DNA of 52,506 bases, taken from the IMG/VR virus record IMGVR_UViG_2534681604_000014, positions 1 through 52,506 of that record. The stretch is one strand, 5' to 3'. The position numbers and the translations under genes are program-made. A model generated the notes under the pieces. That model was not told the origin of the DNA. It worked only from the letters and a program-made list of their open reading frames with translations, and searched no databases. Every line of letters begins with the position of its first letter. Position 1 is the stretch's first letter. This document shows positions 18,141-39,203 of this stretch, in pieces. Origin of the DNA: a virus. Taxonomy: Duplodnaviria; Heunggongvirae; Uroviricota; Caudoviricetes.

Positions 18141-21100
18141 TTATGCGTATTGTTGGATGACGGCCAGAACGTCCGCCACGTTGTGTTTTGTCTCGATAAT
18201 CCACCAGTTACCCGGGAAATCGCTGTTCTTCGCCTTCGCTGGCAGCCAGCGAGCGCCGAATTTCGCCTTGATTGCGTCTTTCGCACGGAAAAGAATGCCT
18301 TTCATGCCGGACGCCTCCTGAAGCCCAAATACCTCGCCAGCGGCGAATTTTGGTGCGTACATCATCTTCAGGTCGGCGGTGGATACGCGATAATTCAGCC
18401 CAAGAGACTGAGCTATGCTGGTGGCATCACCCTGTATTGATGATAACTCTTCTTGTTTCTCGTTTCTGGCGGCAATTTCTTCCTCCGTGATGTTGCCTAG
18501 GGCCAGGTTTATCCGATCAGCGTCGGCCTGTTTCTCTTCATCGGTGCGTCCGGCAAGAACCGTGTTAATTCTCTGCAATATCTCCACATGATTCTTGCGC
18601 ATGCTGAGCAATTCCGGCGTAACCTCGTTAAGGTCCACCAGCCCAAGGATGGCAAGGTCGGAAAACATTGATACCAGGTTGTAGGTCATGCGATAGCTGA
18701 GTTGGCCATAGGCTGATGGCAACTGCACCGAATCCATTTTATAGGCATCCATAAATTTAGAGCCGTCGTTTACGACTTCCGCAATTGCAGGTGTGATTTT
18801 CCCTGTGGTGGCGGCCTCCCTGATTGCTGTTACCCACGATTGAGTCAGCGCGGCGACTGCATGATTCAGATTGGCTTTCCGTTCTGCTGCAATGCGCGCG
18901 CTTGCAGCGTCCATTGCCTGCTTGATCTCGTCTTTATTGCTGTAAATGCCAATGGTGCCAAACTGTGCTGTGGTGATCTCAAAGTCTGACGCCCGGAACT
19001 CATTAATACCGAAAATGGCATTGGTGACCTCAAGTTCAGAATCACCGTTACGGGTAGCCCCCTGGCTTGTTTTCTCCGGCATTCTGGCGATCGCATCCGC
19101 TATTTTCTCCTGAATTGCTTCAGGGGATAGCGTATCTCCGTATGACGCGATTACATCGCCATAATTGGAGCCAAACAGTTCAGTCAGGAATACTTCTGCC
19201 AAACGGACCTGGCGGTTATTCCCTTCCGACATCATACCAAGCACCCATTTAGCAATTGACGACTTCAGGGCGCCGTCACGGCGATCCGGATAAACCGCAT
19301 GCTTCAGCGGGTCCGTATAGGTACCAACAAAATCAATGCTGTAGCCTGACTCTGTAGTCTGAACGCCGTATGAGTCAGTGATTTTGATCATGCCGCGCTG
19401 CTGGAAACGGTAGAAATCGTCACAGGAAATGATGTCGTTAATCCCGGCGATGGAGACGCCACCACTGATTTTCTGCATAACAGCATCTTCATCGGGAGTT
19501 ACATCCACCTGTTTATCCAGCGTCTTCACATCCCAGTTACCCGATTTGGTACCTTTGAAGGTAAAGATAATCTCCACGTCTGCGCGCTGGCTGTCGAAGT
19601 CCAGCGACTTAATGCGAACGATATCACCGGCACAATCGTAGTATTGGCCTACACGCCATGAGCGATCGCCGATAACAAGGAACTCATTCGCATGGTTAAC
19701 CAGATCAGGATCAACATCCAGAATGCCTTTATTTATTGCATCCTCCACCAGCGGGCGCAGGCGTTTGATATCCGTCGCGGCCTTCTGAGTACGGTTCAAT
19801 AATTTCTCATAACGGGAGATGGCCTGAGAGATATTAGCCTTGCGCTGAATGGCGCTTTTCAACGACGCGCGATACTGTGCTAACAACGTACGGTCTGTGT
19901 GATGGACGCTACCCCAGCGGGCCTTCCAGTCTGCGTTATCAGCTGCTTTGGCCATTGCCGCCTGTTTGAATTTAGCTACCTCGGCGGTGGTCTTTTCAAG
20001 TTCCGCTTTGCTTCGCTCTAATTCAGCGGTAAGTACCTCCACATCCTCGCCAGCTGCGTGCTGCGCCTTGATGTAGTTCTGAAGGTCGATAGTAGCCTGT
20101 TCTTTCTGGCGAGCGCGTTGCGCGGCTTTCGCCTTATCCATTTGAACCTGCATCATTGCCAGACGTTCGCCGTCATCCTTCGCGGTATACATCTGCATTT
20201 CGATCATGTCATTGGCGTCGGCGTTCTCCATTTCTGACTTATCTGAACGGAGGATATCGGAGATCCAGCCTGCTTTACGCTTCAGCGTCTTCAGTCGGTA
20301 TTCATCGAAAGAACCCTTGCCGCAGTAGTAGTGAACGCGAACGCTTGCACGGTTGGAGCCAACTCGGGCACCGCGACCGTTTCGTTGCGCAATACTGGCT
20401 GGAGTCCATGGCAACGTCAGATGATGGATGTCAGTCGTTCCTCGATGCAGGTTGATACCCACCTCTGCCTTTTTGTTGCAGATGATGATCGGAGTCCGGC
20501 CCTCCTGGAAGTCGGCTGCAATCTTTTCCAGACCGCCCAACGACATTTCATTTTGCTGCGCGATATAGGCGTCATACAGAGCCATTTGCTCGTTGTATTT
20601 CGCTATCTGTGCATCTGTTGGTTCATCCGATAACTCTTTCGGCGGTTTAACCGCTTTCAGTTTCTTACCGGTTTTACCTGCCTCGGCAACCGTCTGAGCA
20701 TTCAGGATCCCCACCTTTGAAGGTTCAAGGTTAAGAGCATTGCAGATAATGCGCTTGAGTTTCTGGTGCTGCGTTTTTTCGTCCGTGAAGATGATTTGCT
20801 TACCTTCCGGGAAAAACTCCTTCAGCGTGGCGATCAGCTTCGCGTATTTGGGTGTAACGGGGTGAGTTACGGTCTGTTCGTCAATGCCAAACCTGGCCAG
20901 GCGCTTATTCACTTCCTGCTCGAACGCTTCCGGAACCTGCAACTGAATAAACTCGCCCTTATCTATCAGGGAGTATTGCGATTGCTGCGTGATTGAATCA
21001 TCACTGTCGTCGTCTTCGCTGGTGGCTTGTTTAGGCAAACTGTCCGCCAGCTGCTGCACCGCATCGGCGTACTCCGGCAGGAAACGATAGGTGATCCGGC

Positions 21101-24100
21101 GATAGTACAGGTCCATGTCAGTACATACGCGGTCCATATCCCTGATTATTGAGAAGATCGGACGGGCTTTCTCGTGCTCAATCACGCCGTCTTCATTGAC
21201 CGAGGTCGTTACGCCATTGTTGGCTTTTGCTGCCGCTTCCGCCTGCTGACGCAATTCTTCATACGCCGCCAGTTGTTCTTCAGTAAGTGGTGCATCCTGC
21301 TGGTGTTCGTCCAGTTCCGGGATCTCCACGGTATCCTTAACGTCTTCCGCCGTTTTAAGCGTTGTCCAGCGATGGAATATGCCGCGCAGCGCATCAAGGT
21401 TTTCAAAACCCACCAGCGCCATTTTTTCTTCAACTTCACCGCTGATTTTCTGTACCGTTTCCAGCCTGGTCTTGCCGAAGAATTTAACGAAGTCATCAGG
21501 ACCGTAGATCCCCATCTTCTGCCAGTATTCCTTCGGCAGAACATGAGAAAGCATGTTGTATGCATCGATCGGGGTGTTAACGACTGGCGTTGCAGTCAGG
21601 AGAACCGGTCCGCGCCCGCCATTCTTTTTCATCAGGTACGCGTTTTTGATTGCCATATCTCGCGCCGATTGCGCCACCGCGCTGGTGGGCAGATAGGCCA
21701 GCTGTGACGCTTCGCGACCATTTTTATAGCTATTGCGGTAGTTGTGGCCTTCGTCAGCAATCACGCTGTCGAAGCCCATATCCTCAAAGTACGGATACTT
21801 CTCTGCTTTTTCGGTACCGGTATCTGAATACTCCGACAATACCCGGCGACGCGCCGCCTCTTTGCGGTGGGAGTCGGAGTCCATTGCGCTGGCTACGCGC
21901 CCGGCAGCAACGAAGTCATAAAGCATATCCTGTGCATGCTCATCTACGGTGTCATCACGTAGCGGAATGCGGGCGTATTGTTCTTTGGTAAACACGACTG
22001 CACGGTAATTTGAGTGCGGGATCGCATTCATCCGCGCCGTGATAGTGGCTTCATCTGCCAGTTTAAGGGCATCGCGCATAACTGGAGTACCATCAGTACC
22101 AAGAACAGGTTTACCGTTCTCATCGAGCACCGGCACCTGGCGAATCTGATCGCTGTCCATCAGTACATCCAGACCGACGAACAGGTAGTTACTGAAGGCT
22201 TCTTCACTCAGGAACTCTTTTGCTTCGTAATACCAGTTTTCCAGCACTGATTTAGGCACTACATAAGCAGTACGGGTGGAGCGACCGTTCTCATAGTTGA
22301 ACGCCTCAAGCGCCAGCGCGGTCGTGGTTTTACCCAGCCCGGTACCGAAGCCCAGGATGCCGCGCCCATCTTCGGACAGTCTGCGCACCTCGCTATTCTG
22401 GTAATCAAATGGCTGTCGCTTACCGCTTAATCCCTTCAACCCAAGCGGATCGCCAGAGTGTTCATACGGGATATTGCTATTGAAAACATCGTTGTATTTG
22501 GCAACCAGCTCATCGTAGCGATCGTGCGTCTTGATCCACTTATTGAACTGGTCCTCAAGCAGTGCCATCTGCTCGCGGTAGCCGTTCGCCGTCGCGCTAT
22601 CTTTTCCACCGATACGCGCACCATTGAGATACTTTTCCAGCTGTGCCGGGAACCCGGTCGCGTTTTCACCTGATTTACGGTCCCACTCGTAGCGGATCTC
22701 GCCTGTTTCTTTATCCTTGCGCTGGACGACACCGTATCGGTGCCCGACGAACAGACCATCACCACCGTGATAGGTGTCAGAAACCATTTCGTCGCCTTCC
22801 AGCTGCACTGACTGCACATAGCGCAGATCCGGATAGCCGTTTTCCTGCAAAAACTCCAGAATGACGGAGCGGTCGAACCAACGGCTATTGAGCTTAAAGC
22901 GGATATTCTCTGCTGGCGTCTTGATGCGCTTCTCTTCGATCGCTGCCAGCTGATTAAGGACGTTGTTCTTTACTGGACCGTCGGGGAGTGTGGCAAGGAA
23001 TTCCTGTTTTGGAGCCACTATCTCGTTAATGTCGCCGCTGGTGGCGCGGGCGAACGGAACAATCCCGCCATACGGTGAAACCGCAATACCAGGGGTGCTG
23101 GCCAATAAATTAAGCAACTCTTCATCACTGGCTGGCAGTTCGCCGGTAAACGCAAGGCGGAAATCATCGAGCTGGATTGGATCGCGGGTAAGATCGCTAT
23201 AGAGATAACGCAGGGTGTCCTGATAGCTGGTGGAGTCATAACTGGCGCTGGAATCATGCGTAACCAGCTTTCCTGTCAGCTCGTCAGAAATAGTGCCATC
23301 CAGCTTAATTGCACCACGGAAAGCAAACCAGGCGCGCGCACCGCTTCCCGATAATTTAGCTATCGGACCGCGACCGGGGTTACCAAAACGGTCAATCTCT
23401 GCCTGCAAACGGGATACCAGAGAAAGGCGCTGCTGTTCGATTTGTTCAGCACTATGCCCGGCGGCCTTCATGTCCTGATATTCAATTAACATCCGGCCAA
23501 TCATCGCCCCGCGATACAAGCGTTCACGGTATTTTTCAGGCTGGCTGTTAATCCAGTCCACCAGCTGCACCATATCGTCGCTGATTGATGTGGTGTACTT
23601 ATCGCGGACATTTGCCATCTGGGTAAATGTCATACCGAGACGGCCTTCTGTTGTAGTCAGGTTACGCTGAAGAGCCTCCCAGCTATCCGCGCCATAACTG
23701 GCAGCATCAATCTTAAGCTCCTTACCAGCATCAGCTTCAATCCAGCGACCACCAGCATATTTTTGCCATACGCCATTAATCAGGCGCATTTCCCCTTCAT
23801 CAACAACATCTGCGGTCGGTGACGGTTCAGCCATATCGAGCAAAGACCAGTCGATACGACTTTCGAAACGATGAATCAGCTTCGCTTTAAGAGCCTGGTT
23901 ATCAATCTGCCCGTCGGCACGAACCTCAATACGCCCCTGGAATCCCTTCTCCTGGGTGCCATGAACAAACCGGCGGCCGTCCTTTTCAAACCACTTGCCA
24001 GAAATAAACGTTGGCCAAAGCACATTTGCCGATTCAAGAGTGCTTTTATCCACCAGGGGGATTTTCTCAGCCATCTCTGCCGAATGTTTGCGCATCAGCA

Positions 24101-24908
24101 CCACATCAACGACTGTACTGGTCCCGTTTGCGTCAAAAGTACCGGTAGGCAAGCGGTGAGCGCCAAGAAATTCAGCTTTCCGTGATAGGCGCAGGCGTAA
24201 CCGCTTCATGTTTGAACCTGAAACAATGGACGGCGGCACAATCACACACATGAATCCGCCTGGCTTTATCTTGTCCAGCATGCGGAGCATGAAGTAAGAC
24301 CCCATGTCCGTTTCTTCTGCGTAAGGCTTATCGATGTTGCGTGTGTTATCACGACCGCCGAACGGAACGTTACCCACAACATGGTCGAATGAATCGTTAG
24401 GCGTGCTTACAGCCAGTTGTTCGAACGGGGAAATCTGTACGCTGTCTTCCGGATGTAACAGCTGGTTTATACGACCGGAAACACTGCTGATCTCAGTCGC
24501 GGTCATCACCGTACCAACCGGTTTTGTCTCATTAAAAACGCCGGTGCCCGCCGATGGTTCCAGAGTGTTACCTACGTCCGCGCCGTAGAGCTTCATGATC
24601 TCCCAGACACCTTCAGCGATCGGCTTTGGTGTGTAATATTCGGAGACGGACCCGCCAATGCCGCCTTCACCAGTGTACCCGGCCAGGATCTGGCGCTGTT
24701 CATCTGTCAGTGTCGCGCCGTCCACCAGTGAATTAAGCAAATCTATCGCCTTCTGATTCGCCTCCCGGCGCAGTCGGTCATAGCTTTTGCCTTCCACCTT
24801 TTCCACGCCGTATTTAATCGGCGCTCGGTGAGATGCTATTGCCCTAATGTATTTCAATATTTCGCTGACACTTGAACAGCGAAACACCCCCATAGATAGC
24901 TTGTTCAT
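18141..24908 (-). CDS. darB: DarB anti-restriction protein (N6-adenine MTase plus SF2 helicase)
   Basis: 2255 aa; MTase motifs EPSAGTG and NVPFGG; helicase GLGKT and DEGH. Confidence 0.9.
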   Translation of the reverse strand: MNKLSMGVFRCSSVSEILKYIRAIASHRAPIKYGVEKVEGKSYDRLRREANQKAIDLLNSLVDGATLTDEQRQILAGYTGEGGIGGSVSEYYTPKPIAEGVWEIMKLYGADVGNTLEPSAGTGVFNETKPVGTVMTATEISSVSGRINQLLHPEDSVQISPFEQLAVSTPNDSFDHVVGNVPFGGRDNTRNIDKPYAEETDMGSYFMLRMLDKIKPGGFMCVIVPPSIVSGSNMKRLRLRLSRKAEFLGAHRLPTGTFDANGTSTVVDVVLMRKHSAEMAEKIPLVDKSTLESANVLWPTFISGKWFEKDGRRFVHGTQEKGFQGRIEVRADGQIDNQALKAKLIHRFESRIDWSLLDMAEPSPTADVVDEGEMRLINGVWQKYAGGRWIEADAGKELKIDAASYGADSWEALQRNLTTTEGRLGMTFTQMANVRDKYTTSISDDMVQLVDWINSQPEKYRERLYRGAMIGRMLIEYQDMKAAGHSAEQIEQQRLSLVSRLQAEIDRFGNPGRGPIAKLSGSGARAWFAFRGAIKLDGTISDELTGKLVTHDSSASYDSTSYQDTLRYLYSDLTRDPIQLDDFRLAFTGELPASDEELLNLLASTPGIAVSPYGGIVPFARATSGDINEIVAPKQEFLATLPDGPVKNNVLNQLAAIEEKRIKTPAENIRFKLNSRWFDRSVILEFLQENGYPDLRYVQSVQLEGDEMVSDTYHGGDGLFVGHRYGVVQRKDKETGEIRYEWDRKSGENATGFPAQLEKYLNGARIGGKDSATANGYREQMALLEDQFNKWIKTHDRYDELVAKYNDVFNSNIPYEHSGDPLGLKGLSGKRQPFDYQNSEVRRLSEDGRGILGFGTGLGKTTTALALEAFNYENGRSTRTAYVVPKSVLENWYYEAKEFLSEEAFSNYLFVGLDVLMDSDQIRQVPVLDENGKPVLGTDGTPVMRDALKLADEATITARMNAIPHSNYRAVVFTKEQYARIPLRDDTVDEHAQDMLYDFVAAGRVASAMDSDSHRKEAARRRVLSEYSDTGTEKAEKYPYFEDMGFDSVIADEGHNYRNSYKNGREASQLAYLPTSAVAQSARDMAIKNAYLMKKNGGRGPVLLTATPVVNTPIDAYNMLSHVLPKEYWQKMGIYGPDDFVKFFGKTRLETVQKISGEVEEKMALVGFENLDALRGIFHRWTTLKTAEDVKDTVEIPELDEHQQDAPLTEEQLAAYEELRQQAEAAAKANNGVTTSVNEDGVIEHEKARPIFSIIRDMDRVCTDMDLYYRRITYRFLPEYADAVQQLADSLPKQATSEDDDSDDSITQQSQYSLIDKGEFIQLQVPEAFEQEVNKRLARFGIDEQTVTHPVTPKYAKLIATLKEFFPEGKQIIFTDEKTQHQKLKRIICNALNLEPSKVGILNAQTVAEAGKTGKKLKAVKPPKELSDEPTDAQIAKYNEQMALYDAYIAQQNEMSLGGLEKIAADFQEGRTPIIICNKKAEVGINLHRGTTDIHHLTLPWTPASIAQRNGRGARVGSNRASVRVHYYCGKGSFDEYRLKTLKRKAGWISDILRSDKSEMENADANDMIEMQMYTAKDDGERLAMMQVQMDKAKAAQRARQKEQATIDLQNYIKAQHAAGEDVEVLTAELERSKAELEKTTAEVAKFKQAAMAKAADNADWKARWGSVHHTDRTLLAQYRASLKSAIQRKANISQAISRYEKLLNRTQKAATDIKRLRPLVEDAINKGILDVDPDLVNHANEFLVIGDRSWRVGQYYDCAGDIVRIKSLDFDSQRADVEIIFTFKGTKSGNWDVKTLDKQVDVTPDEDAVMQKISGGVSIAGINDIISCDDFYRFQQRGMIKITDSYGVQTTESGYSIDFVGTYTDPLKHAVYPDRRDGALKSSIAKWVLGMMSEGNNRQVRLAEVFLTELFGSNYGDVIASYGDTLSPEAIQEKIADAIARMPEKTSQGATRNGDSELEVTNAIFGINEFRASDFEITTAQFGTIGIYSNKDEIKQAMDAASARIAAERKANLNHAVAALTQSWVTAIREAATTGKITPAIAEVVNDGSKFMDAYKMDSVQLPSAYGQLSYRMTYNLVSMFSDLAILGLVDLNEVTPELLSMRKNHVEILQRINTVLAGRTDEEKQADADRINLALGNITEEEIAARNEKQEELSSIQGDATSIAQSLGLNYRVSTADLKMMYAPKFAAGEVFGLQEASGMKGILFRAKDAIKAKFGARWLPAKAKNSDFPGNWWIIETKHNVADVLAVIQQYA

Positions 24909-29601: not shown

Positions 29602-30717
29602 TTAGAATTGGTAGGTCATACCAACAGCAACGATGTTGTCGGTTGCAACTTTAGATTCTTTGGTAAAGTCACTTTCATCAATCAGGTTGATCTTGTAGTC
29701 AACGAAAGCGGACATATTTTTGTTGAAGTAATAAGTCGCACCCAAGTCGATGTATTCAACCAGATCCTGGCTGCCGAACTCACCAATATTTTCACCGCGA
29801 GAGTGCAGATAAGCGATGGACGGACGCAGGCCGAAATCAAACTGGTATTGAGCAACAGCTTCAAAGTTTTTCGCCTTGTTCGCGATAAAGTCATCACCGA
29901 AGACAGTCATATTCTGAGTTTCAGAATAAGTTGCAGCCAGGTAAATGTTATTTGCGTCATATTTCAGGCCAGTAGCCCATACTTCAGCAGTTTTACCAGA
30001 AGCATTCAGAGGATCTTTTTTAGCATAGGATTCCTGCCCATCAGTACGATCAGATTTTGCATAGGTTGCACCAACGCCAAATCCTTCATAATCGTAAGTA
30101 GCAGACAGACCAAAGCCATCACCATTAGATTCAACTACGTCGTCACGGCCTTTCCAGTTGTTCACTTTTGCAGCACTATCATTTTTACCTTGATACTGCA
30201 AAGCAAAGTTCAGACCATCAACCAGGCCGAAGAAATCATTGTTACGGTAGGTGGCTACGCCAGTAGCACGCTGGGTCATAAATACATCGGTCTGAGTCCA
30301 GGTATCTCCACCAAACTCAGGCAGCACGTCAGTCCAAGCGCCAATATCATAAGCTACACCATAGTTGCGACCATAGTCGATTGAACCATAATCAGCAAAA
30401 CGGAGGCCAGCAAATGCAAGACGAGTTTTATCTTTATCAGAGCCCTCAGATTCAGTACGGTTACCTTTAAATTCGTACTCCCACTGACCAAAACCGGTTA
30501 ACTGGTCATTAATCTGAGTTTCACCTTTGAATCCCAGACGAGCATAAGTCTTATCTCCGTCATCACTAGCTGAAGAAGAGAAGTAATGTTCTGCGTTAAC
30601 TTTGCCGTACAGATCCAGTTTATTACCGTCTTTGTTGTAGATTTCAGCTGCTTGCGCAGACATTGCCATCAGGACAGATGCTGCAACCGCAGAGAGTGCC
30701 ACTGTGATTTTTTTCAT
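29602..30717 (-). CDS. outer-membrane general porin (OmpC/OmpF/PhoE family)
   Basis: 371 aa; signal peptide ending AQA-AEIYNK; conserved porin blocks ([68 protein letters not shown]); C-terminal YQF. Confidence 0.9.
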
Positions 30718-30829
30718 TTTTTTTGCCCTTTAGATTGAACTTTTCAGTAGAAAAGAGGTCACTGCGGACAAATGTTTATCTTTTTTGGATTCGTGTTTCA
30801 AGTTTTGCAAATAAAAAACAAGATATTTT

Positions 30830-30845
30830 TGTGATCAAAATCACA
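30830..30845. promoter_or_regulatory. CRP-like palindrome upstream of the porin gene
   Basis: TGTGA-TCAAAA-TCACA, 113-128 bp upstream of the porin start. Confidence 0.4.
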
Positions 30846-31548
30846 AATAATGCCCTTAAAAATCCAATGGGCTATTGGAAAAATCTCAATTTACAGAATA
30901 AAAACTGACAAAACAGTTCAAAATACAATCAATAATAAGAGCAAGATAACTCACAATTAAATTAGCATAAAAATAATAACCACAAGAATAGATAGCATGT
31001 TAATTAACAAGGCAATTTTATTGGATGTAGATTTGAAATCTACTTAAAAAATATAATCAATTTAATTACGGTCCATTAGGTATTAAACTGAATCTATATT
31101 GTGAGAATTAAAGACGATGTGTTTTAGTTATACATGTTATTCCCTGGAAAAGAGACTTGCCTCATCGAATTCTTATTAATAACGAACCAAGTCAATTCAT
31201 TTTAGTATGTGTATCTATTTGCTCCCTGAATATGCAATGATGGTTAGACAAGTAAGATAGTGAGAATTAAAATTAATCAGGAGTCACTTGTTAATAAATG
31301 CAACTTAATTTTAACATCTCACACTGATTATAATATTTCCTGGAAGCCTTATGAATACATATTCTGATAACATACACAACCTTATCGATATAGCCAAATT
31401 AGCTGTAGCCATGAGGGAACATGGCTATTTTTTTCGCACTTCGTCGAGGAATAGATGTTAATTTTTGTGCTGATTTAAACGGGAGTGGCACACAAGGGAT
31501 ATTCATAAGAAAAAAAGTTTTAACGCGTATGAGCCAAGTTTTATTGAA

Positions 31549-31956
31549 GTGATTTTCGAACCCACTCATAAAAACGATGATTCATTTCTATACGAAGAGG
31601 ACCTTACTACCGATCAACGAAAAGACTACGAACCTAGTATTAACAGAGGAAAACATCGATTCGTTGCCCGACGTGCTAAGCTAAATCTCGACTGGGACAG
31701 TAATGAAATCCACCAATGGCGTTTGGATATTGAGCGACTTACTAAACCACACAACACTCTTAATGACTGGTTAAAAAATGATTCAGAGATAATGATAATA
31801 CATCGCTGCGGCGGTTATAGGTTCCGTGAACCTGTGATTCTCTCTCAAAGAGACATTAAACAATATGTAGCTTCAGGATTGACTCTGGAAGATTTAAAAA
31901 ATCGGCTAAAGTGCTCAATATGTGGTGAGCGAAACGCCAAAATTAAAGTTTTTTGA
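31549..31956 (+). CDS. hypothetical protein in AT-rich island
   Basis: 135-aa ORF, GTG start without a clear SD; C-terminal CxxC. Confidence 0.3.
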   Translation: MIFEPTHKNDDSFLYEEDLTTDQRKDYEPSINRGKHRFVARRAKLNLDWDSNEIHQWRLDIERLTKPHNTLNDWLKNDSEIMIIHRCGGYRFREPVILSQRDIKQYVASGLTLEDLKNRLKCSICGERNAKIKVF

Positions 31957-32067: not shown

Positions 32068-32376
32068 TTAATATACTATCTGGTCTACATGATCACCAAA
32101 ATCATCGTCGTCGTCCTCATCGCCACCATCTACTGCTGGCCAATCAACAAACCAGCCAGCGTAAAGATGCAGCGTTCGGAGAACATCACTTGCGGGGGCA
32201 TCAAGGGTGTTAACGAATCCCATATAGCTATTGGGATTTGCTCCAGCTATGGCTTCAGCGATCATGTCCTCGGTAATGTCACCGGAGATAATGCTTAAAC
32301 GCCCGGAAACTTCTTCATTATCATCAAATTCTATAATGGCATCTCCGCCTAATGGCGCTGCGATTTTAATCTGCAT
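32068..32376 (-). CDS. hypothetical acidic protein (Asp-rich C-terminus)
   Basis: 102-aa ORF overlapping the upstream gene by 11 nt; GGDEDDDDDFGD tail. Confidence 0.4.
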   Translation of the reverse strand: MQIKIAAPLGGDAIIEFDDNEEVSGRLSIISGDITEDMIAEAIAGANPNSYMGFVNTLDAPASDVLRTLHLYAGWFVDWPAVDGGDEDDDDDFGDHVDQIVY

Positions 32377-34054
32377 TATTTAGCTCCTTTGCCACACCTA
32401 ATAACAGTTCCAGCAATCCGTCACCATTCATCAGTGATGCGGCAGCGGCCTCTTTGTCATGATACAACTGAAGAGCCATAGAGAATACTTCCGTTGCTGA
32501 CGTTTTGGAAATAGTCGGTGATTTCTGCCGAATTTTCCCGGAATTACTCACTGAGGCTGACGGGTATACCTTCGCCATATAAATATTACTCAATCGAGAT
32601 CTGAAGCACCATTCGGGCTTGCCACGCCCACCGATATTGACGAAAGATGGCTTATCCCCTTCAACATTGGCCTTCAGGAATGACCTGGCTTTCTCTAACA
32701 GACCAGGGTTACTGTACTCAAGATGATGACCCAGCTCGTGCCACAGTGCACTTGCATTTTTATCGTTCAAATTGACAGCAACAACACCATTAAGATTTGC
32801 ATATGCCCTTCCCTGGTGGTGAACCACCTTTGATAAGGTCGAAATTTTACCGCCGGTCAGGCGATAAATATCAGCAAGTTCCTTGCGCAGGTCTATCCCA
32901 CCATTCTGTCCAGCGCGGGCTTCTTCCACTTCTTCCGTGATAAAAGAGTCGGCCCACTCAAGAGCTTTTTCTTCAGATACGGATGAGTTGGCGATCGCAC
33001 TGTTCATGGCAGATAACACTTTCTCGTGGACCGAACCCATACTTTGCTGATTCATTTGCCAGCGTGTCTGCGGGTTATATGAGAATCGCTTAAGTAGTTG
33101 GTCAAGATGCTCAAGTTCTTCTTCACTGACATACTTTTTAGCCTCACCAATAATGCCAGGGAGAATATTGCCGTTAGGATTAAAGGCTCGCGAAAGGAAG
33201 AGTTTCAGCGCCCCCATGCCCTCCGATGCTTCAATATCACCAATAACCCGGTTAACAATGGCCGCACTCTTCGGATTAGCATCCGCCAACGCCCTGGCTA
33301 CAATTTGCAGGGACGATACGACCTCACGCTGCATATCCGTCCTGATCTCATCAATAAACTCTGGCGTTATGCCGTGCTCTTTAAGGATATCCCTGCCTTC
33401 CGCCGTTACCCCATCGATATCACCGACATGTTTATTAACCCGACTTTGCAATGCCTTAAATGCCTTCAGAATTCCACGGGCATCATCCGCTTTACTAACG
33501 GCCTTCCTGAATGCTGGCAAGAAGTCAGAGTTAACCTCATTTTGTTGATCGGCCCACTGAATGGAGGCTTCTTTCATCTCGTCCAGAGTCAGATCACCCA
33601 ACGCGGTATGGTCTGTGAATATGAGCGACAACCTCTGAACCATTTCTGCCAATGGTGATGCCGAATGCGCCGCGCTAAGGAATGCTTTCACCCTGGTTGG
33701 GCGAATGGAAAACCAGTCAATAGCTGGTGGCATATCTCCGTTTTTTATCGCCTGCGCTATCTCGTCAAAGCCATCGCGCCCAAGGGAGGATGCGTGATTT
33801 AACAAGCCGCGAAGTAACGAATTGCTGATACAGAATAATCGGCACCATTTTTTCACGTCGGCAACAGGCATTCGGACAAAATGCGCAAGCACTTGTACCA
33901 GCTGTTCATCCTGGAGATCTGTGCGGGAAAGCAGCCGGATCAGGTGAATAATATCTTTGATGCCGGATGCCCGATGTAATAACAAGCTGGTATATGGCGC
34001 AACACCGTTGTATCCGCTGCTGGTGGTCATAACTATCTGATCGTTTAAACTCAT
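32366..34054 (-). CDS. dar-operon protein with HExxH metallopeptidase-like motif
   Basis: 562 aa; WHELGHHLEY motif; sits directly downstream of ddrA where P1 has ddrB. Confidence 0.5.
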   Translation of the reverse strand: MSLNDQIVMTTSSGYNGVAPYTSLLLHRASGIKDIIHLIRLLSRTDLQDEQLVQVLAHFVRMPVADVKKWCRLFCISNSLLRGLLNHASSLGRDGFDEIAQAIKNGDMPPAIDWFSIRPTRVKAFLSAAHSASPLAEMVQRLSLIFTDHTALGDLTLDEMKEASIQWADQQNEVNSDFLPAFRKAVSKADDARGILKAFKALQSRVNKHVGDIDGVTAEGRDILKEHGITPEFIDEIRTDMQREVVSSLQIVARALADANPKSAAIVNRVIGDIEASEGMGALKLFLSRAFNPNGNILPGIIGEAKKYVSEEELEHLDQLLKRFSYNPQTRWQMNQQSMGSVHEKVLSAMNSAIANSSVSEEKALEWADSFITEEVEEARAGQNGGIDLRKELADIYRLTGGKISTLSKVVHHQGRAYANLNGVVAVNLNDKNASALWHELGHHLEYSNPGLLEKARSFLKANVEGDKPSFVNIGGRGKPEWCFRSRLSNIYMAKVYPSASVSNSGKIRQKSPTISKTSATEVFSMALQLYHDKEAAAASLMNGDGLLELLLGVAKELNNAD

Positions 34055-34066
34055 CCCTGTTACGCC

Positions 34067-34432
34067 TTATACCGCCTCTTTAATATTGGCGGCTATCCAT
34101 GCCGCCGTGTGCTGTTTAACCTGGTCCAGGTCGATGTATGTGCCAACATATTGACTCAAGTCCTGCAAGGTACCGATAAATGCATCTGTGCTCTGATCGA
34201 CGAATTTATCAGCCAGGAAATCAGCAACCAGTTTTGGCACACCATCATGTACCGAAGGTTGTTTTTCCTCGCCACTACTGCCGCCGGATGCACCGTACCC
34301 CATCTGTTGCATGATCTGGTCAATTTCATCGCTGATATCCAGCAACTCCATGCCACTCGCGGTAGCCGCTTTGGACATCAGAGCATCCAACTTATCGCTG
34401 AGATCCATTAACTCAATAGCTGATAGTGTCAT
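34067..34432 (-). CDS. ddrA: DdrA-like protein
   Basis: 121 aa, immediately downstream of darA with a 4-nt overlap. Confidence 0.55.
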   Translation of the reverse strand: MTLSAIELMDLSDKLDALMSKAATASGMELLDISDEIDQIMQQMGYGASGGSSGEEKQPSVHDGVPKLVADFLADKFVDQSTDAFIGTLQDLSQYVGTYIDLDQVKQHTAAWIAANIKEAV

Positions 34433-36348
34433 GCCGCTACCCCCGCTTTCTGGATTGCTACCAACAGATCAGCCAGGTGGCGAGCTGCGCCGTTAACCAG
34501 CTCTTCGTTTTCCTCAAAACGTCCGGCAGCCTGAAGGGCTGCAATCGCTTCCCGGACATTGCCCCGGGCGTTACGGATCTCCGCCATGTCAGTGCTTTGC
34601 ATATCCATCACGTTATTGAGATATTCAATGGCTTTATTAGCCTCTGCATCTGCTTCGCTAACCGTTTCATCAGGCTGTTCCGGGACCGGTTCTGGTTGAG
34701 TAATCTGACCGACTTCGGCCTGCAATGCATTGATCATGCTCTGCACCATTTTCTCGGTGCCAGCGCCCCCAGGAAACGCAATATTGGGGAAAGTTTTTTG
34801 AAACTGAGTTTTCAGCATTACGCGGAACTCGTCTGGTGAGCTGGTGGCCAGCTCCAGAGCTTTTTGTGCAAATTTGCCAAACGGACCATTAGTAAGTGTC
34901 TTCGCCAGGAAGTCGAAAGAATCCTCGCGAGGCAATAACTTCAGGTCGTACTCACTCATTTGCTGATCAGAAAGCGGGGTATCGTAAGTAGCAATGCCGT
35001 AGCGTGCATATTCATAATACGGGTCACCTTCATCAGGGCGCGGCAGAATTGCTTTGTTACCTTCAGGTATTGCGCCAGGGGCCGCCGGACGCATTTGCAG
35101 GGCATATCGATATGCACCTACAGAGACTTCTGGTTCAGGCGAAGAGCTACCGGTATCCTCCGCTGGTTCAGGCTCGACGTTTTCCGGTTTATGTTCTTCT
35201 GGTTGGACCAGGTATTCCGATACATTACCCGCTTTATAGGCTTTAAACAGCTTGCCGATCGCATCTGCCATGTCCACACCCTGTATGGATTTAGCCTTGA
35301 TCATGTACACGCTGCCATCCGAATCGGTTAACTGGATATACCCTTCGCCATCCCCAATGAATTGCTTCATTGATGCACCATTACTGAGCGTCACTTCCCC
35401 GTTCATATGCATACGATTTTTGATGCTGGCAAGGCGATCCGTCAGCGCGCGAGAGTGCCCACCAGTCATCCCCGCTGGAGCAATGGTATCGCGCCCACCA
35501 GTGCGATTGAGCTGATCAATCTCCGCCTGCAAACGCTCATTTTCTTGATAAAGAGAATCTGCTTCCGAAGCAACCGCGTTAATTTTCTGCTCCAGATCTG
35601 CCTTCTGGCCTTCTACCGCTGCCACCTGATCCGCGAGGTCGCTCATAGCATCCTCTTTCTGGTCACTGTCAGCCTGTAGTTGGGTTATTTCATCAACCAG
35701 GGCTTTTTTCTTCTTCTGCGCACGCTGGAATTTTGCCGAGTTTTTCTCTGCAAGGTTGGCAAGTTTCATGGTGACCTGCGCCAGCGTCATATCACGGCCA
35801 CTCATCGGAGCAACGGTGTGAGTAACGTCTTTTTTATTCAGTAAGAACTGGAAAGCAACCAGCGTATCGCTATTGGTGATCCGGTTTTCCGCTGTCGGGC
35901 TATGAAACAAAATGCTGATAGTCTGACCATCACTGAGCGGAATAATGGCTGGCAGGACCGGCAGACCATTAACGTTACGTGCCCGGCCAATTTCAGCGCC
36001 GCCGATCGCGCGCGCGCCGCTCTGGGCCACATCCCCCGTTTTATCACTCCCCGCAGAGATTCCGGTACCATTCAGCTTCTGGTTCAATGCCCGGACAAAT
36101 GCCTGCATAGTCCGGTGTAACTGCAAACGAGTAGAGCTAATCGCCTCCAGTAAATCCGTAGCACACCAGTGGATCGGCGTGTCATAGAAGAACGTAGCCT
36201 CGATTTCCTCCAGGGTGTTGGATTCCGTCATCAGATAGCGGTCCTCACCGGCCATTAATGCGCGATATTCATCATCAGTCACCGGCGGGGGAAGCACGTC
36301 AAGCCCAGGCTTAATCGTCACCCCTTTATTGATATTGAACTGTTCCAT
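34429..36348 (-). CDS. darA: DarA (packaged anti-restriction protein)
   Basis: 639 aa, size and position match P1 DarA. Confidence 0.75.
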   Translation of the reverse strand: MEQFNINKGVTIKPGLDVLPPPVTDDEYRALMAGEDRYLMTESNTLEEIEATFFYDTPIHWCATDLLEAISSTRLQLHRTMQAFVRALNQKLNGTGISAGSDKTGDVAQSGARAIGGAEIGRARNVNGLPVLPAIIPLSDGQTISILFHSPTAENRITNSDTLVAFQFLLNKKDVTHTVAPMSGRDMTLAQVTMKLANLAEKNSAKFQRAQKKKKALVDEITQLQADSDQKEDAMSDLADQVAAVEGQKADLEQKINAVASEADSLYQENERLQAEIDQLNRTGGRDTIAPAGMTGGHSRALTDRLASIKNRMHMNGEVTLSNGASMKQFIGDGEGYIQLTDSDGSVYMIKAKSIQGVDMADAIGKLFKAYKAGNVSEYLVQPEEHKPENVEPEPAEDTGSSSPEPEVSVGAYRYALQMRPAAPGAIPEGNKAILPRPDEGDPYYEYARYGIATYDTPLSDQQMSEYDLKLLPREDSFDFLAKTLTNGPFGKFAQKALELATSSPDEFRVMLKTQFQKTFPNIAFPGGAGTEKMVQSMINALQAEVGQITQPEPVPEQPDETVSEADAEANKAIEYLNNVMDMQSTDMAEIRNARGNVREAIAALQAAGRFEENEELVNGAARHLADLLVAIQKAGVAA

Positions 36349-36349
36349 G

Positions 36350-36961
36350 TTAATTTCCTGCTTTCAGTTGCTTAAGACGGCGTTTTAGTTCGCCATTTCG
36401 GGCCTTTTCGTTATTGAGTCGGCCCGTCTCCTTATCCAGCTTCGCCCGCAAATCGGTGATCTGCTGTTGATTGAAAGACACCGAGTTCTGCGCGGACTTA
36501 TAAGCGGCAGCCACCTGAGCATTCCTCTGTTTTGCCTCTTGAAGGCGCTGAAAATTGGATTTAACTGCCGGTTTCTTGTCTACCGGATTGGCAACACGTT
36601 TCGCTTTGGCGATCAGTGATTTCTGGAATTTTGCGGAGTTTTTGCGGGCCGCTTGCCCCATGACGGCACCAAGCGTCTTGATATCCGGCGACTGAGCGTT
36701 AGGAATAGCTTTTCCATTCAGTTTCACAGACGATATATCGCCAGTATCGTTTACCTGTATGGCAAGAATTTGTCCGTCGTTAAGAACCAGCTTTGCGGTT
36801 TTAACTTTAACGCCATCTTTCGTTGTTGCGCGGTTGCTGGAGTCAACCTCAATCACCGTCACACCGGTTTTATTGATCGCCGTGATAAGGGATTTCAGCC
36901 CCTTTTCATTAACCTGGTCAAAATCGACCGTTGCATACTTATTTTTCGTCATCTGACACAT
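36350..36961 (-). CDS. hdf: Hdf (head morphogenesis, dar operon)
   Basis: 203-aa ORF immediately upstream of darA. Confidence 0.6.
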   Translation of the reverse strand: MCQMTKNKYATVDFDQVNEKGLKSLITAINKTGVTVIEVDSSNRATTKDGVKVKTAKLVLNDGQILAIQVNDTGDISSVKLNGKAIPNAQSPDIKTLGAVMGQAARKNSAKFQKSLIAKAKRVANPVDKKPAVKSNFQRLQEAKQRNAQVAAAYKSAQNSVSFNQQQITDLRAKLDKETGRLNNEKARNGELKRRLKQLKAGN

Positions 36962-37382
36962 CCTGTGCGAGATTTATTACGTAACTTCTGCGGATTTGCT
37001 GAGTAACAGGGAAAATCCGATACAACGGGTTAATGAACGAGTCGCCATGCGTAACCATGACGTTGAAATGCCACAGCCGTTCTCCTTTACCCATATATTC
37101 AGTGGGTATGTATAACCATTCGCTGTTTTCGCCCTGTTCAGCCGATGTCAGACAACGTTGCTCGCCTTCAATCACTGTCGTCGGCTTCTGAACATCGCGG
37201 ATCCAATACCTGACCGTTGCGCCGCGCAAAAAAGGAAATTTGGACCGGTATTTGAACGGCACCCGGATGAAGCCCGGTTTAATTTCCACTTCACCAAGCT
37301 CTAAATTCGTGATGTCCTTGCGTTTTAGCAAATAGCGATCGGCTAAGGCTAACGCAAGAGCGCATACACCCCAGCCAATCAT
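36939..37382 (-). CDS. lydB: LydB antiholin
   Basis: 147-aa ORF downstream of lydA with a 4-nt overlap. Confidence 0.6.
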   Translation of the reverse strand: MIGWGVCALALALADRYLLKRKDITNLELGEVEIKPGFIRVPFKYRSKFPFLRGATVRYWIRDVQKPTTVIEGEQRCLTSAEQGENSEWLYIPTEYMGKGERLWHFNVMVTHGDSFINPLYRIFPVTQQIRRSYVINLAQDVSDDEK

Positions 37383-37708
37383 TTCCCGCCTCCCTTTTTC
37401 ACCAAACTTGTAAGAACATTCAGAATGCTATCGATATTCACTCGTTTCATCCCTGAAATCACCTCATGACCGTTATTGCTGGCTATCGTTACCATTAAGT
37501 ACGTAATTGATAACTCCCAGCCCTCGTGTTGCCCCAATAGGTACGCCACCGCGCCAGCTGTCACTGCAACAAAGATCTCCGTAACCAATCCCAACAAATT
37601 GCCAGACTGGCGACCGTCTCGGACATCCATCAGGAACGTGCCTATCCCACCAATTACTGAAAGCAGGAGCGCAATAGCAACTGGAGCTAATTCCTGTGTG
37701 TCAAGCAC
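37379..37708 (-). CDS. lydA: LydA holin
   Basis: 109 aa with hydrophobic transmembrane segments and a basic C-terminus. Confidence 0.65.
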   Translation of the reverse strand: MLDTQELAPVAIALLLSVIGGIGTFLMDVRDGRQSGNLLGLVTEIFVAVTAGAVAYLLGQHEGWELSITYLMVTIASNNGHEVISGMKRVNIDSILNVLTSLVKKGGGK

Positions 37709-37775
37709 AAGTTCCCTCCTACGTTGTCAGGAGGTAATGGTATGCAAAGTAACTTCTCAACCGGTCATTTGTTGC

Positions 37776-38184: not shown

Positions 38185-38424
38185 ATGCTAATAGGCTATG
38201 TACGCGTATCAACAAATGAACAAAACACTGCTTTGCAACGAAATGCCCTTAAAAGCGCAGGATGTGAGCTAATTTTTGAGGATAAGGCGAGCGGCAAAAA
38301 GGCTGAACGCCCTGGGTTAAAAAAGGTTCTGCGTATGCTTTCCAGAGGTGACACCCTGGTCGTATGGAAGTTAGAGCGTCTTGGGCGCAGCATACGTCAC
38401 TTGGTTGTGCTGGTGGAAGATTGA
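38185..38424 (+). pseudogene. cin: truncated cin invertase (N-terminal 79 aa only)
   Basis: MLIGYVRVSTNEQNT...DTLVVWKLERLGRS is the catalytic N-terminus of a Hin/Gin/Cin serine invertase; ends after about 79 of about 186 aa, so the DNA-binding C-domain is missing. Confidence 0.8.
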
Positions 38425-38660
38425 AAAGTTAGCAGTTATCACAGCTACCCGATCACTATCCGGAGCAATGAAGAAGATAGCGAGAATGGAAGAAAACACC
38501 TAACAATTTGATACATGATATTTTTACACGAAGAGCGAAACTCCTTTTGCAGGAAATGGTCGCAATTACCTTTATGATGAAGGGTTGTCAACAGTTATTC
38601 TATTTTTTATAATCCACAAAAAACAATTCAGGGTATTTTATATAAAAGTCAAGGCAACAT

Positions 38661-39203
38661 ATGGATATTGATTTTCTTAAAGAGTGTCTCCTAGTTGAAG
38701 TTATTGGTGGGGGTAATAAACAATTCTCATGGCCTCGCGCCATTCGCCATGCCTGGCGGCAACCTAAACGCAGGTTTCTTTTTTGGTGGCGTATAGCATC
38801 TTATCTATATGATATGGACAACAAATATCTAAAAAAACTCGGAAAGAAAATTAACAGAAATTTATCCTTTAAATACAATACTGATATTGAACTTGGAGCA
38901 TCAATAGCTCCTGGATTATATATTGGACATTATAGTGGTATTGTTATTACAAGATATGCAACGATTGGTAGAAATTTTAATATAAGGCAAAACACAACTA
39001 TTGGTTTAAAAAATTCTAACACTAACAGAGTTACTATTGGAGATAATGTTAATATTGGAGCAAACTCCTGTATAATCTCAGACCACATCACTATAGGTGA
39101 TAATGTAAAAATAGGGGCTTTTACCTTTGTAAATAAAGATATACCTTCAAATTCAACTTATTACACCAAGAAAATCAATATATGCAAGGAAAGGGAGGCG
39201 TAG
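38661..39203 (+). CDS. hexapeptide-repeat O-acetyltransferase
   Basis: 180 aa; left-handed beta-helix hexapeptide repeats; GC content clearly lower than flanking sequence. Confidence 0.75.
   Translation: MDIDFLKECLLVEVIGGGNKQFSWPRAIRHAWRQPKRRFLFWWRIASYLYDMDNKYLKKLGKKINRNLSFKYNTDIELGASIAPGLYIGHYSGIVITRYATIGRNFNIRQNTTIGLKNSNTNRVTIGDNVNIGANSCIISDHITIGDNVKIGAFTFVNKDIPSNSTYYTKKINICKEREA

Follow-up and report, generated by a model that had tools for sequence, protein, structure and literature searches.

The window analysed here is the whole of the 52,506-nucleotide (nt) IMG/VR record IMGVR_UViG_2534681604_000014, which belongs to a P1-like (Punavirus) phage-plasmid, and this work concerns the gene at its ddrB locus, the last but one in a late operon of the order lydA-lydB-hdf-darA-ddrA-ddrB-hxr. 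The original prediction, made from the letters alone, had noticed after darA and ddrA an open reading frame (ORF) of 562 amino acids (aa) that contains WHELGHHLEY and is overlapped over 11 nt by a second ORF of 102 aa. Both features were confirmed: the 562-aa ORF occupies positions 32366 to 34054 on the minus strand, encodes HELGH at 32726 to 32740 within ...ALWHELGHHLEYSNPG..., and shares positions 32366 to 32376 with the 102-aa ORF.

BLASTP comparison aligned residues 15-562 of this protein, of roughly 62 kDa as estimated from its length, without gaps to residues 448-995 of P1 DdrB, with 534 of 548 residues identical (97%), and residues 1-12 to residues 1-12 of P1 DdrB, with 9 of 12 identical. 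Similarly, the DdrB profile phrog_2299 (995 positions) matched residues 12-562 over profile positions 445-995 only (E = 0, 1053 bits). At the DNA level the length difference to P1 amounts to exactly 1299 nt, or 433 codons, and the frame is kept. Megablast against annotated phages gave 96-98% identity over the region to P1, P7, JL22, phi456 and others, the matching stretch being about 1.3 kb longer in each of them. The 562-aa gene is a P1-type ddrB with a 1299-nt in-frame internal deletion of codons 13-445, which P1 DdrB possesses and the short allele lacks. It shares with P1 DdrB (YP_006491.1, 995 aa, 108.7 kDa), P7 Prt and the DdrBs of JL22 and phi456 the locus between ddrA and hxr, the start region, the stop codon and the late operon.

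What the deletion takes out is the ddrB-ParB domain, a linker of about 280 residues and the antisense ORF iddB. The Pfam family PF18763 (ddrB-ParB) was found at residues 36-167 of P1 DdrB (E about 2e-39) and also in P7 DdrB, whereas a Pfam search with the window protein gave no match to PF18763. Kept are the start codon and the sequence upstream of it, the 12-nt spacer between ddrA and the ddrB start that is also found in P1, the late promoter, the whole C-terminal module and the stop codon of P1. In DNA alignments to P1, P7, JL22 and phi456 the retained native start and first 12 codons lie at 34019-34054 (minus strand) and are followed by the two junction codons AGC GGA (Ser-Gly; 34013-34018, minus strand), which were located by alignment at both deletion endpoints; the translation of 34013..34054 is MSLNDQIVMTTSSGYN. 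The short DdrB is thus a domain-deleted variant of a known protein, a member of the family by sequence and synteny without the ddrB-ParB domain that gives the family its name.

In the original prediction a mass of about 108 kDa had been given for P1 DdrB, and this figure was right, as the protein has 995 aa in NC_005856 and is listed with 108.7 kDa in the P1 virion proteome table (PMC9024508). From the size difference it had been proposed that the product is either a truncated or remodelled DdrB or a different packaged protein. The former description is correct, since the first 12 and the C-terminal 548 residues are collinear with P1 DdrB, and the latter does not hold for a protein that is 97% identical to the C-terminus of P1 DdrB and ends at the same stop codon. 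Collinear identity with P1 DdrB does not extend over the full length, 433 codons being absent, and the rest of the alignment is collinear.

The module that remains consists of two parts. The helical region (aa 15-329; 33068..34012, minus strand) was all-helical, at modest confidence, in a whole-protein AlphaFold2 (AF2) model, and a match to the whole module (query residues 8-557) was obtained only in P1-like DdrBs (P0049 and P0052). Outside the P1-like DdrBs, relatives share only residues ~320-557. The second part is the C-terminal zincin-like metallopeptidase (MPTase) domain (aa 330-562; 32369..33067, minus strand). An exhaustive profile search detected 488 relatives among 1.8 billion representatives, and the HExxH motif was present in 139 of the 139 family representatives whose match covers the motif position. 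In an alignment of 24 sequences (22-42% identity) H439, E440 and H443 of the HELGH zinc-binding motif are invariant, as are R416, E446, E481, Y492, Y497, E522 and S525, and all 10 residues are kept in the short DdrB. E446 is the next invariant residue after HELGH (HExxHxxE), and E522 and S525 belong to the sequence TEVFS (32480..32494, minus strand; alignment columns E193 and S196) where a helix begins that spans 194-200 of the domain model.

Structure prediction of the HExxH region, which the original prediction had suggested as a check, gave a confident model when the 24-sequence alignment was used (mean predicted local distance difference test score, pLDDT, 92.1; predicted template modelling score, pTM, 0.90), and this model contains the beta-sheet, the active-site helix and the following helix of the zincin core fold. 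The whole-protein AF2 model, based on 4 sequences, was too poor for the peptidase region (pLDDT <50 at residues 405-527) and was not used for it. The C-terminal domain is therefore predicted to be a peptidase of the zincin fold with a complete catalytic motif; candidates for the third zinc ligand are E522 (in TEVFS, an ExxS arrangement as in gluzincins) or E481. No Pfam match was found in the C-terminal region at E<=0.1 for the window protein, E<=1 for the P1 and P7 proteins or E<=0.001 for 10 relatives, and the peptidase domain had no match in NCBIfam or among PDB sequences; an LPD5 match was weak (E = 0.095) and was disregarded. A Foldseek search returned nothing significant, the structurally nearest solved folds being anthrax lethal factor-like peptidases (PPEP-2/3, LF, MtfA).

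The metallopeptidase-like motif, taken in the original prediction to suggest a packaged effector with enzymatic activity, withstood the comparison as a conserved feature of the homologs and is no chance occurrence. It does not set the window protein apart from P1 DdrB, which carries the identical HExxH sequence, shares HELGHHLE and TEVFS, and is already annotated accordingly ('possible metallopeptidase' in the P1 record, 'putative protease' for P7 Prt, 'putative metallopeptidase' in JL22). It is the absence of the ParB half that separates the short protein from P1 DdrB; the peptidase is common to both. The metallopeptidase idea is also already published: DdrB was described as a polyvalent protein with an N-terminal DdrB-ParB domain and a C-terminal zincin MPTase, and the peptidase was proposed to autoprocess DdrB to the reported 76-kDa packaged form (Iyer, Burroughs, Anand, de Souza and Aravind, 2017; PMC5512222). 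To that description of the zincin-like MPTase the domain of the short DdrB adds the invariant glutamate three residues past the motif; in contrast to the published arrangement, the domain in the short allele is no longer joined to any effector domain that it could release.

The distribution of the short allele was studied with a 501-nt probe across the junction, which matched end to end in carriers of the short allele and in two separate pieces in all other records. Among P1-like plasmids in PLSDB, 21 of 477 carried the short allele (in Escherichia coli, E. fergusonii and E. albertii), as did 9 of the 475 complete E. coli genomes with any probe match, and the exact junction occurred in 7 IMG/VR contigs, compared with 79 that have the full-length signature. 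The short allele is thus a minority form that accounts for about 4-8% of copies, and because its junction recurs in all three collections the deletion is real and not an assembly artefact. The junction CCAGC-AGCGGA-TACAACGG was identical and the 562-aa ORF intact in all of the other complete, intact copies that were extracted (18/18), and the complete copies free of assembly errors likewise all have an intact ORF (18/18). An apparent decay of the gene in E. fergusonii EF91 (L013) was rejected, as the single-base homopolymer indels found there also run across darA, hdf and intergenic DNA and are assembly errors. The identity of the junction in all copies indicates that the short allele arose once.

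When compared with 59 full-length alleles, the short alleles show 7 fixed differences (at nt 6, 19, 21, 37, 39, 40 and 42), which include both junction codons, so that the Ser-Gly codons and these differences match no sampled full-length allele. Over the first 240 nt the nearest full-length allele is 11-19 nt away, whereas past this point the distance to the closest full-length allele falls to 0-10 nt for most short alleles, which delimits an island of ~240 nt with 5-8% divergence around the junction; outside it, exchange between the short allele and full-length alleles is free. In E. fergusonii, one full-length allele departs from the C-terminal part of the window gene at just 7 positions, all of them in the first 240 nt of that part. 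Similarly, in the 160 nt that follow the junction on its right 434 of 457 PLSDB records were 90-95% identical and carriers of the short allele 95-100%.

A clean and recent deletion at a microhomology was considered and rejected, as the junction CCAGC|AGCGGA|TACAACGG is contained in none of the 59 full-length alleles and the flanks offer only an imperfect CCAGC/CCGGC match. The parental allele would be a full-length ddrB that carries ATGAGTTTAAACGATCAGATAGTTATGACCACCAGC and then ATAGAAACG; a full-length allele with the short-type 5' end was found 0 times in IMG/VR, and none was seen in PLSDB as judged by identity bands. By these comparisons, no sampled full-length allele gave rise to the short allele through a recent deletion, and an unsampled diverged parent, or mutation at the deletion event, would explain the differences at the junction. 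We infer an old indel polymorphism, or an entry from a diverged relative, whose distal flanks were homogenised via recombination; the old divergence would have been kept near the indel because the DNA there is too close to it to recombine.

Other rearrangements of ddrB were encountered as well. The IMG/VR loci L075, L100, L052 and L105 have a full-length-type 5' end with reading frames of 32, 910, 991 and 991 aa, respectively, from the native start; ddrB disruption may thus occur among full-length-type alleles too, sequencing errors being a possible source. A protein of 693 aa (P0016), found on 74 contigs and named 'DarA' in UniRef, consists of DarA residues 1 to ~345 fused to the last ~350 residues of DdrB and is without the DarA C-terminus, ddrA and the DdrB N-terminus. 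Another of 762 aa (P0013) is a DdrB that lacks residues ~419-640. In both proteins the sequences rejoin at ...TAEGRDILKEHG, with the zincin domain in frame.

A homologue search revealed a second setting in which DdrB lacks ParB. Klebsiella P1-like phage-plasmids encode three ParB-less homologues of 558 aa (P0021-P0023; for example in GCA_051686805.1, contig DBJOEX010000021.1) with 34-35% identity to the window protein over 97% coverage, and the gene stands in the order cin, lydA, lydB, hdf, darA, ddrA, 558-aa gene, hxr-like gene, ssb, lyz. These proteins share with the window protein the architecture of helical region plus zincin without ParB, a length within 4 residues and the position in the operon, and WHExGHHLExSNPGLLEKARSFLK and TEVFSMALQL are invariant between them. 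Their N-terminus starts within about 6 residues of the junction of the window gene, and their first 13 residues are unrelated to those of the window protein. Unlike the short allele, which segregates beside a full-length form, the Klebsiella form is an independent, native architecture of its own lineage. Among the three alleles, synonymous divergence (dS) was 0.12-0.19 and the ratio of nonsynonymous to synonymous divergence (dN/dS) 0.07-0.11, which corresponds to strong purifying selection, and clearly a ParB-less DdrB is a working protein in the Klebsiella elements. In the same elements the gene at the darA position (L020 2962-5010, L023 2697-4697) encodes 666-682 aa, compared with 639 aa in P1 and in the window, is of different length in different alleles and has no recorded Pfam match; the darB-like gene encodes 2254 aa.

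Most distant relatives of the peptidase domain (8/10) carry an N-terminal ddrB-ParB domain, and the ParB-bearing protein P0052 (1014 aa), one of them, is about 30% identical over the entire 550-aa module. The combination of ParB and peptidase is therefore the widespread state and, parsimoniously, the ancestral one, from which ParB would have been lost on two or more occasions. Such repeated loss at a near-identical boundary is an argument for regarding the helical-plus-zincin module as a functional unit in its own right.

In order to judge whether the short allele is a pseudogene, constraint on its sequence was analysed. Pairwise dN/dS was 0.17 for short and 0.135 for full-length alleles, the figure for short alleles being confounded by recombination with full-length alleles. 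Pairwise dN/dS was therefore replaced by a test, itself imperfect, on private variants, that is, those present in short alleles only when judged against the panel of 59 full-length alleles. Private variants of the short clade comprised 25 synonymous and 24 nonsynonymous changes (omega about 0.29) and depart from the neutral expectation of about 23% synonymous changes (binomial P = 2e-5). Polymorphisms of full-length alleles in the same region divided 113:70, which is indistinguishable from the short-clade ratio (Fisher p = 0.19). By this measure there is no detectable relaxation of constraint in the short allele.

The 102-aa ORF downstream (32068..32376, minus strand) is hxr, its product being identical to P1 Hxr at 100 of 102 positions (98%, full length) and matching phrog_2292 (E = 2e-59). 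In P1, P7, JL22 and phi456 hxr overlaps the full-length ddrB by the identical 11 nt, so that the suggestion that this Asp-rich ORF might be a frameshifted continuation of the 562-aa ORF has to be abandoned. The P1 record labels hxr (gp021) 'possible repressor; homolog of Xre' on the basis of 28% identity to Xre. No Pfam family (E<=0.1) or NCBIfam family was detected in Hxr, and no Xre-type helix-turn-helix domain was found. The C-terminal end of Hxr is an acidic run (GGDEDDDDDFGD). In the Klebsiella lineage hxr is also kept beside ddrB (98-99 aa), and because of this conserved neighbourhood Hxr may functionally be part of the dar operon rather than a repressor.

Upstream of ddrB, on the same strand, follow ddrA (121 aa; 34067..34432; phrog_1855 'DdrA-like anti-restriction protein', E = 8e-58), darA (639 aa; 34429..36348), collinear with the 639-aa darA of P1 according to megablast matches and the P1 annotation, hdf (203 aa; 36350..36961), of the position and size of P1 hdf, and lydB (36939-37382) and lydA (37379-37708), which agree with P1 in order and size and are the first genes of the darA late operon. 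The late promoter LPdar (37737..37755, minus strand) sits upstream of lydA, is identical in sequence to the annotated LPdar of P1, and P1 and window sequences are identical across this region. A scan of the window found no minus-strand sigma-70-like promoter between LPdar and hxr, and the three minus-strand terminator-like matches in this interval have weak 5-bp stems and occur at background frequency. An intact darB (2255 aa; 18141..24908, minus strand) with N6_Mtase, SNF2 and Helicase_C domains is present elsewhere in the window.

Two neighbouring intervals differ from P1. The cin ORF encodes 79 aa (within window positions 38185-39203), compared with 186 aa for P1 Cin, and its Resolvase domain covers positions 2-87 of 145. 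It is followed by a low-GC stretch (37-41%) encoding a 180-aa hexapeptide-repeat acyltransferase-like ORF (38661-39203, plus strand); cin thus appears to have been cut short by inserted or replacement DNA, and the tail-fibre C-segment could as a result be fixed in a single orientation. Between ssb and hxr (window positions 29602-31956) lies an OmpC/NmpC-type porin gene (Porin_1, E = 1.9e-148), as it does in P7, JL22 and phi456, while P1 has isaA-IS1-isaB at this site. A remnant of isaB (135 aa; 31549-31956; phrog_30162 positions 67-201 of 201) is present in the window, and similarity to P1 near this remnant begins exactly at the end of the IS1 of P1, so that the ssb-hxr interval is a hybrid of P7-type and P1-type layouts.

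For full-length P1 DdrB, it has been reported that the protein is located in the virion head (39 unique peptides) and 'aids DarB addition to capsid' (PMC9024508), that it assembles after Hdf and DarA, and that it forms with DarB and Ulx an arm that protects against EcoB and EcoK (PMC9024508, PMC12810830). The supplement of the P1 proteome study (PMC9024508) contains no peptide map of which half of DdrB reaches virions. Against this background the short DdrB, of roughly 62 kDa, would be produced late along with the products of the other Dar genes, would enter the procapsid via the Hdf/DarA-dependent route and would still aid DarB loading. It would also retain the zinc-dependent proteolytic processing step predicted for its zincin domain, and it would have lost the post-injection contribution of the ParB-like domain, a predicted DNase/NTPase. 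We consider it rather probable that all of this holds together, that is, that the short DdrB is made late, packaged and supports DarB loading and a proteolytic step without ParB activity. The short allele is then probably not a dead gene but a separation-of-function allele that arose in nature.

Several points weigh against a functional short DdrB and favour a tolerated pseudogene, in which the deletion killed ddrB function, for example by removing a packaging determinant or the sole effector domain, and left an inert remnant whose intact appearance reflects only its youth in every lineage or continual repair through exchange with full-length alleles. In RefSeq, PGAP annotates the short allele in at least 3 genomes as a pseudogene ('incomplete; partial in the middle of a contig; missing N-terminus'), which is why it is absent from the PLSDB gene tables. 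Also, ddrB is non-essential for plaque formation, its loss being thus tolerable (PMC10695390), and has been reported to be absent from most D6-group phage-plasmids (bioRxiv 10.1101/2025.09.12.675607), and the short allele itself is a minority form. In the model of Iyer et al. (2017; PMC5512222), what is predicted to be packaged as effector is the N-terminal ParB fragment, and the peptidase has no role beyond processing this fragment; in that case the short protein would be without its cargo and possibly without its packaging determinant as well. With regard to the constraint test, some of the 'private' variants may stem from unsampled full-length alleles, and frequent gene conversion from functional full-length alleles, in line with the extensive recombination past nt 240, could mimic constraint in the C-terminal part. 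In contrast, the short allele has kept its start codon, its frame and each of the 10 invariant residues of the peptidase, and the 18 error-free complete copies, from three species and several continents, are intact without exception. The private variants show a synonymous bias of the same pattern as in full-length alleles, and the island around the junction implies an old allele that has had time for decay, of which none is seen. The Klebsiella homologue under purifying selection, moreover, indicates that the module needs no ParB in cis. On balance an inert remnant seems unlikely to us, both as regards the loss of function and as regards the youth or repeated repair that would have preserved the ORF.

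Other readings of the locus fare less well. That the short form is ancestral and that P1 DdrB later gained a ParB module, inserted after codon 12, would fit the fact that Klebsiella P1-like elements have only the short architecture and that the 5' end of the short allele is more diverged than the remainder of the gene, but the ddrB-ParB domain in most distant relatives of the peptidase, P0052 included, makes this order of events very improbable. Practically no weight remains for the 562-aa and 102-aa ORFs as halves of one frameshifted gene, or for the 562-aa product as an unrelated packaged protein, as only the 11-nt overlap and the size discrepancy to P1 DdrB speak for them, against the identification of Hxr, the same overlap in four other phages, the 97% identity to P1 DdrB and the shared stop codon.

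A more far-reaching version of the functional reading is that the helical-plus-zincin module is the core, autonomous part of DdrB and ParB a dispensable add-on. The peptidase would then act beyond its own ParB cargo, and ParB-less variants would be kept since they provide DarB-dependent anti-restriction while dispensing with a ParB activity that, in some hosts, carries a cost or is itself a target. We put this forward tentatively, and the targets that could be envisaged for such a peptidase, for instance further Dar proteins while the head is being assembled or, once injection has taken place, a host target, are equally speculative. If true, this reading is at odds with the prediction in the literature that releasing the ParB fragment for packaging is the sole purpose of the peptidase.

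In the literature examined, the short allele as an old, widespread and apparently constrained polymorphism, hidden as a RefSeq pseudogene, appears to be unreported, and so does the native ParB-less orthologue in Klebsiella P1-like elements; that both jointly argue against a peptidase existing only to release ParB also appears to be new. Otherwise the case is ordinary: both the gene and its motif were known, the change is a plain in-frame deletion, and the interest to specialists on the Dar proteins is modest, no new kind of system being involved. The RefSeq pseudogene label, in turn, hides a probably functional protein from protein databases and anti-defence surveys. Together, the short allele and the Klebsiella homologue constitute a ready-made natural domain deletion through which the function of ParB could be separated from that of the peptidase and assembly part. 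The finding thereby bears on the roles of the two predicted enzymatic domains of DdrB and on which half of the protein enters the virion.

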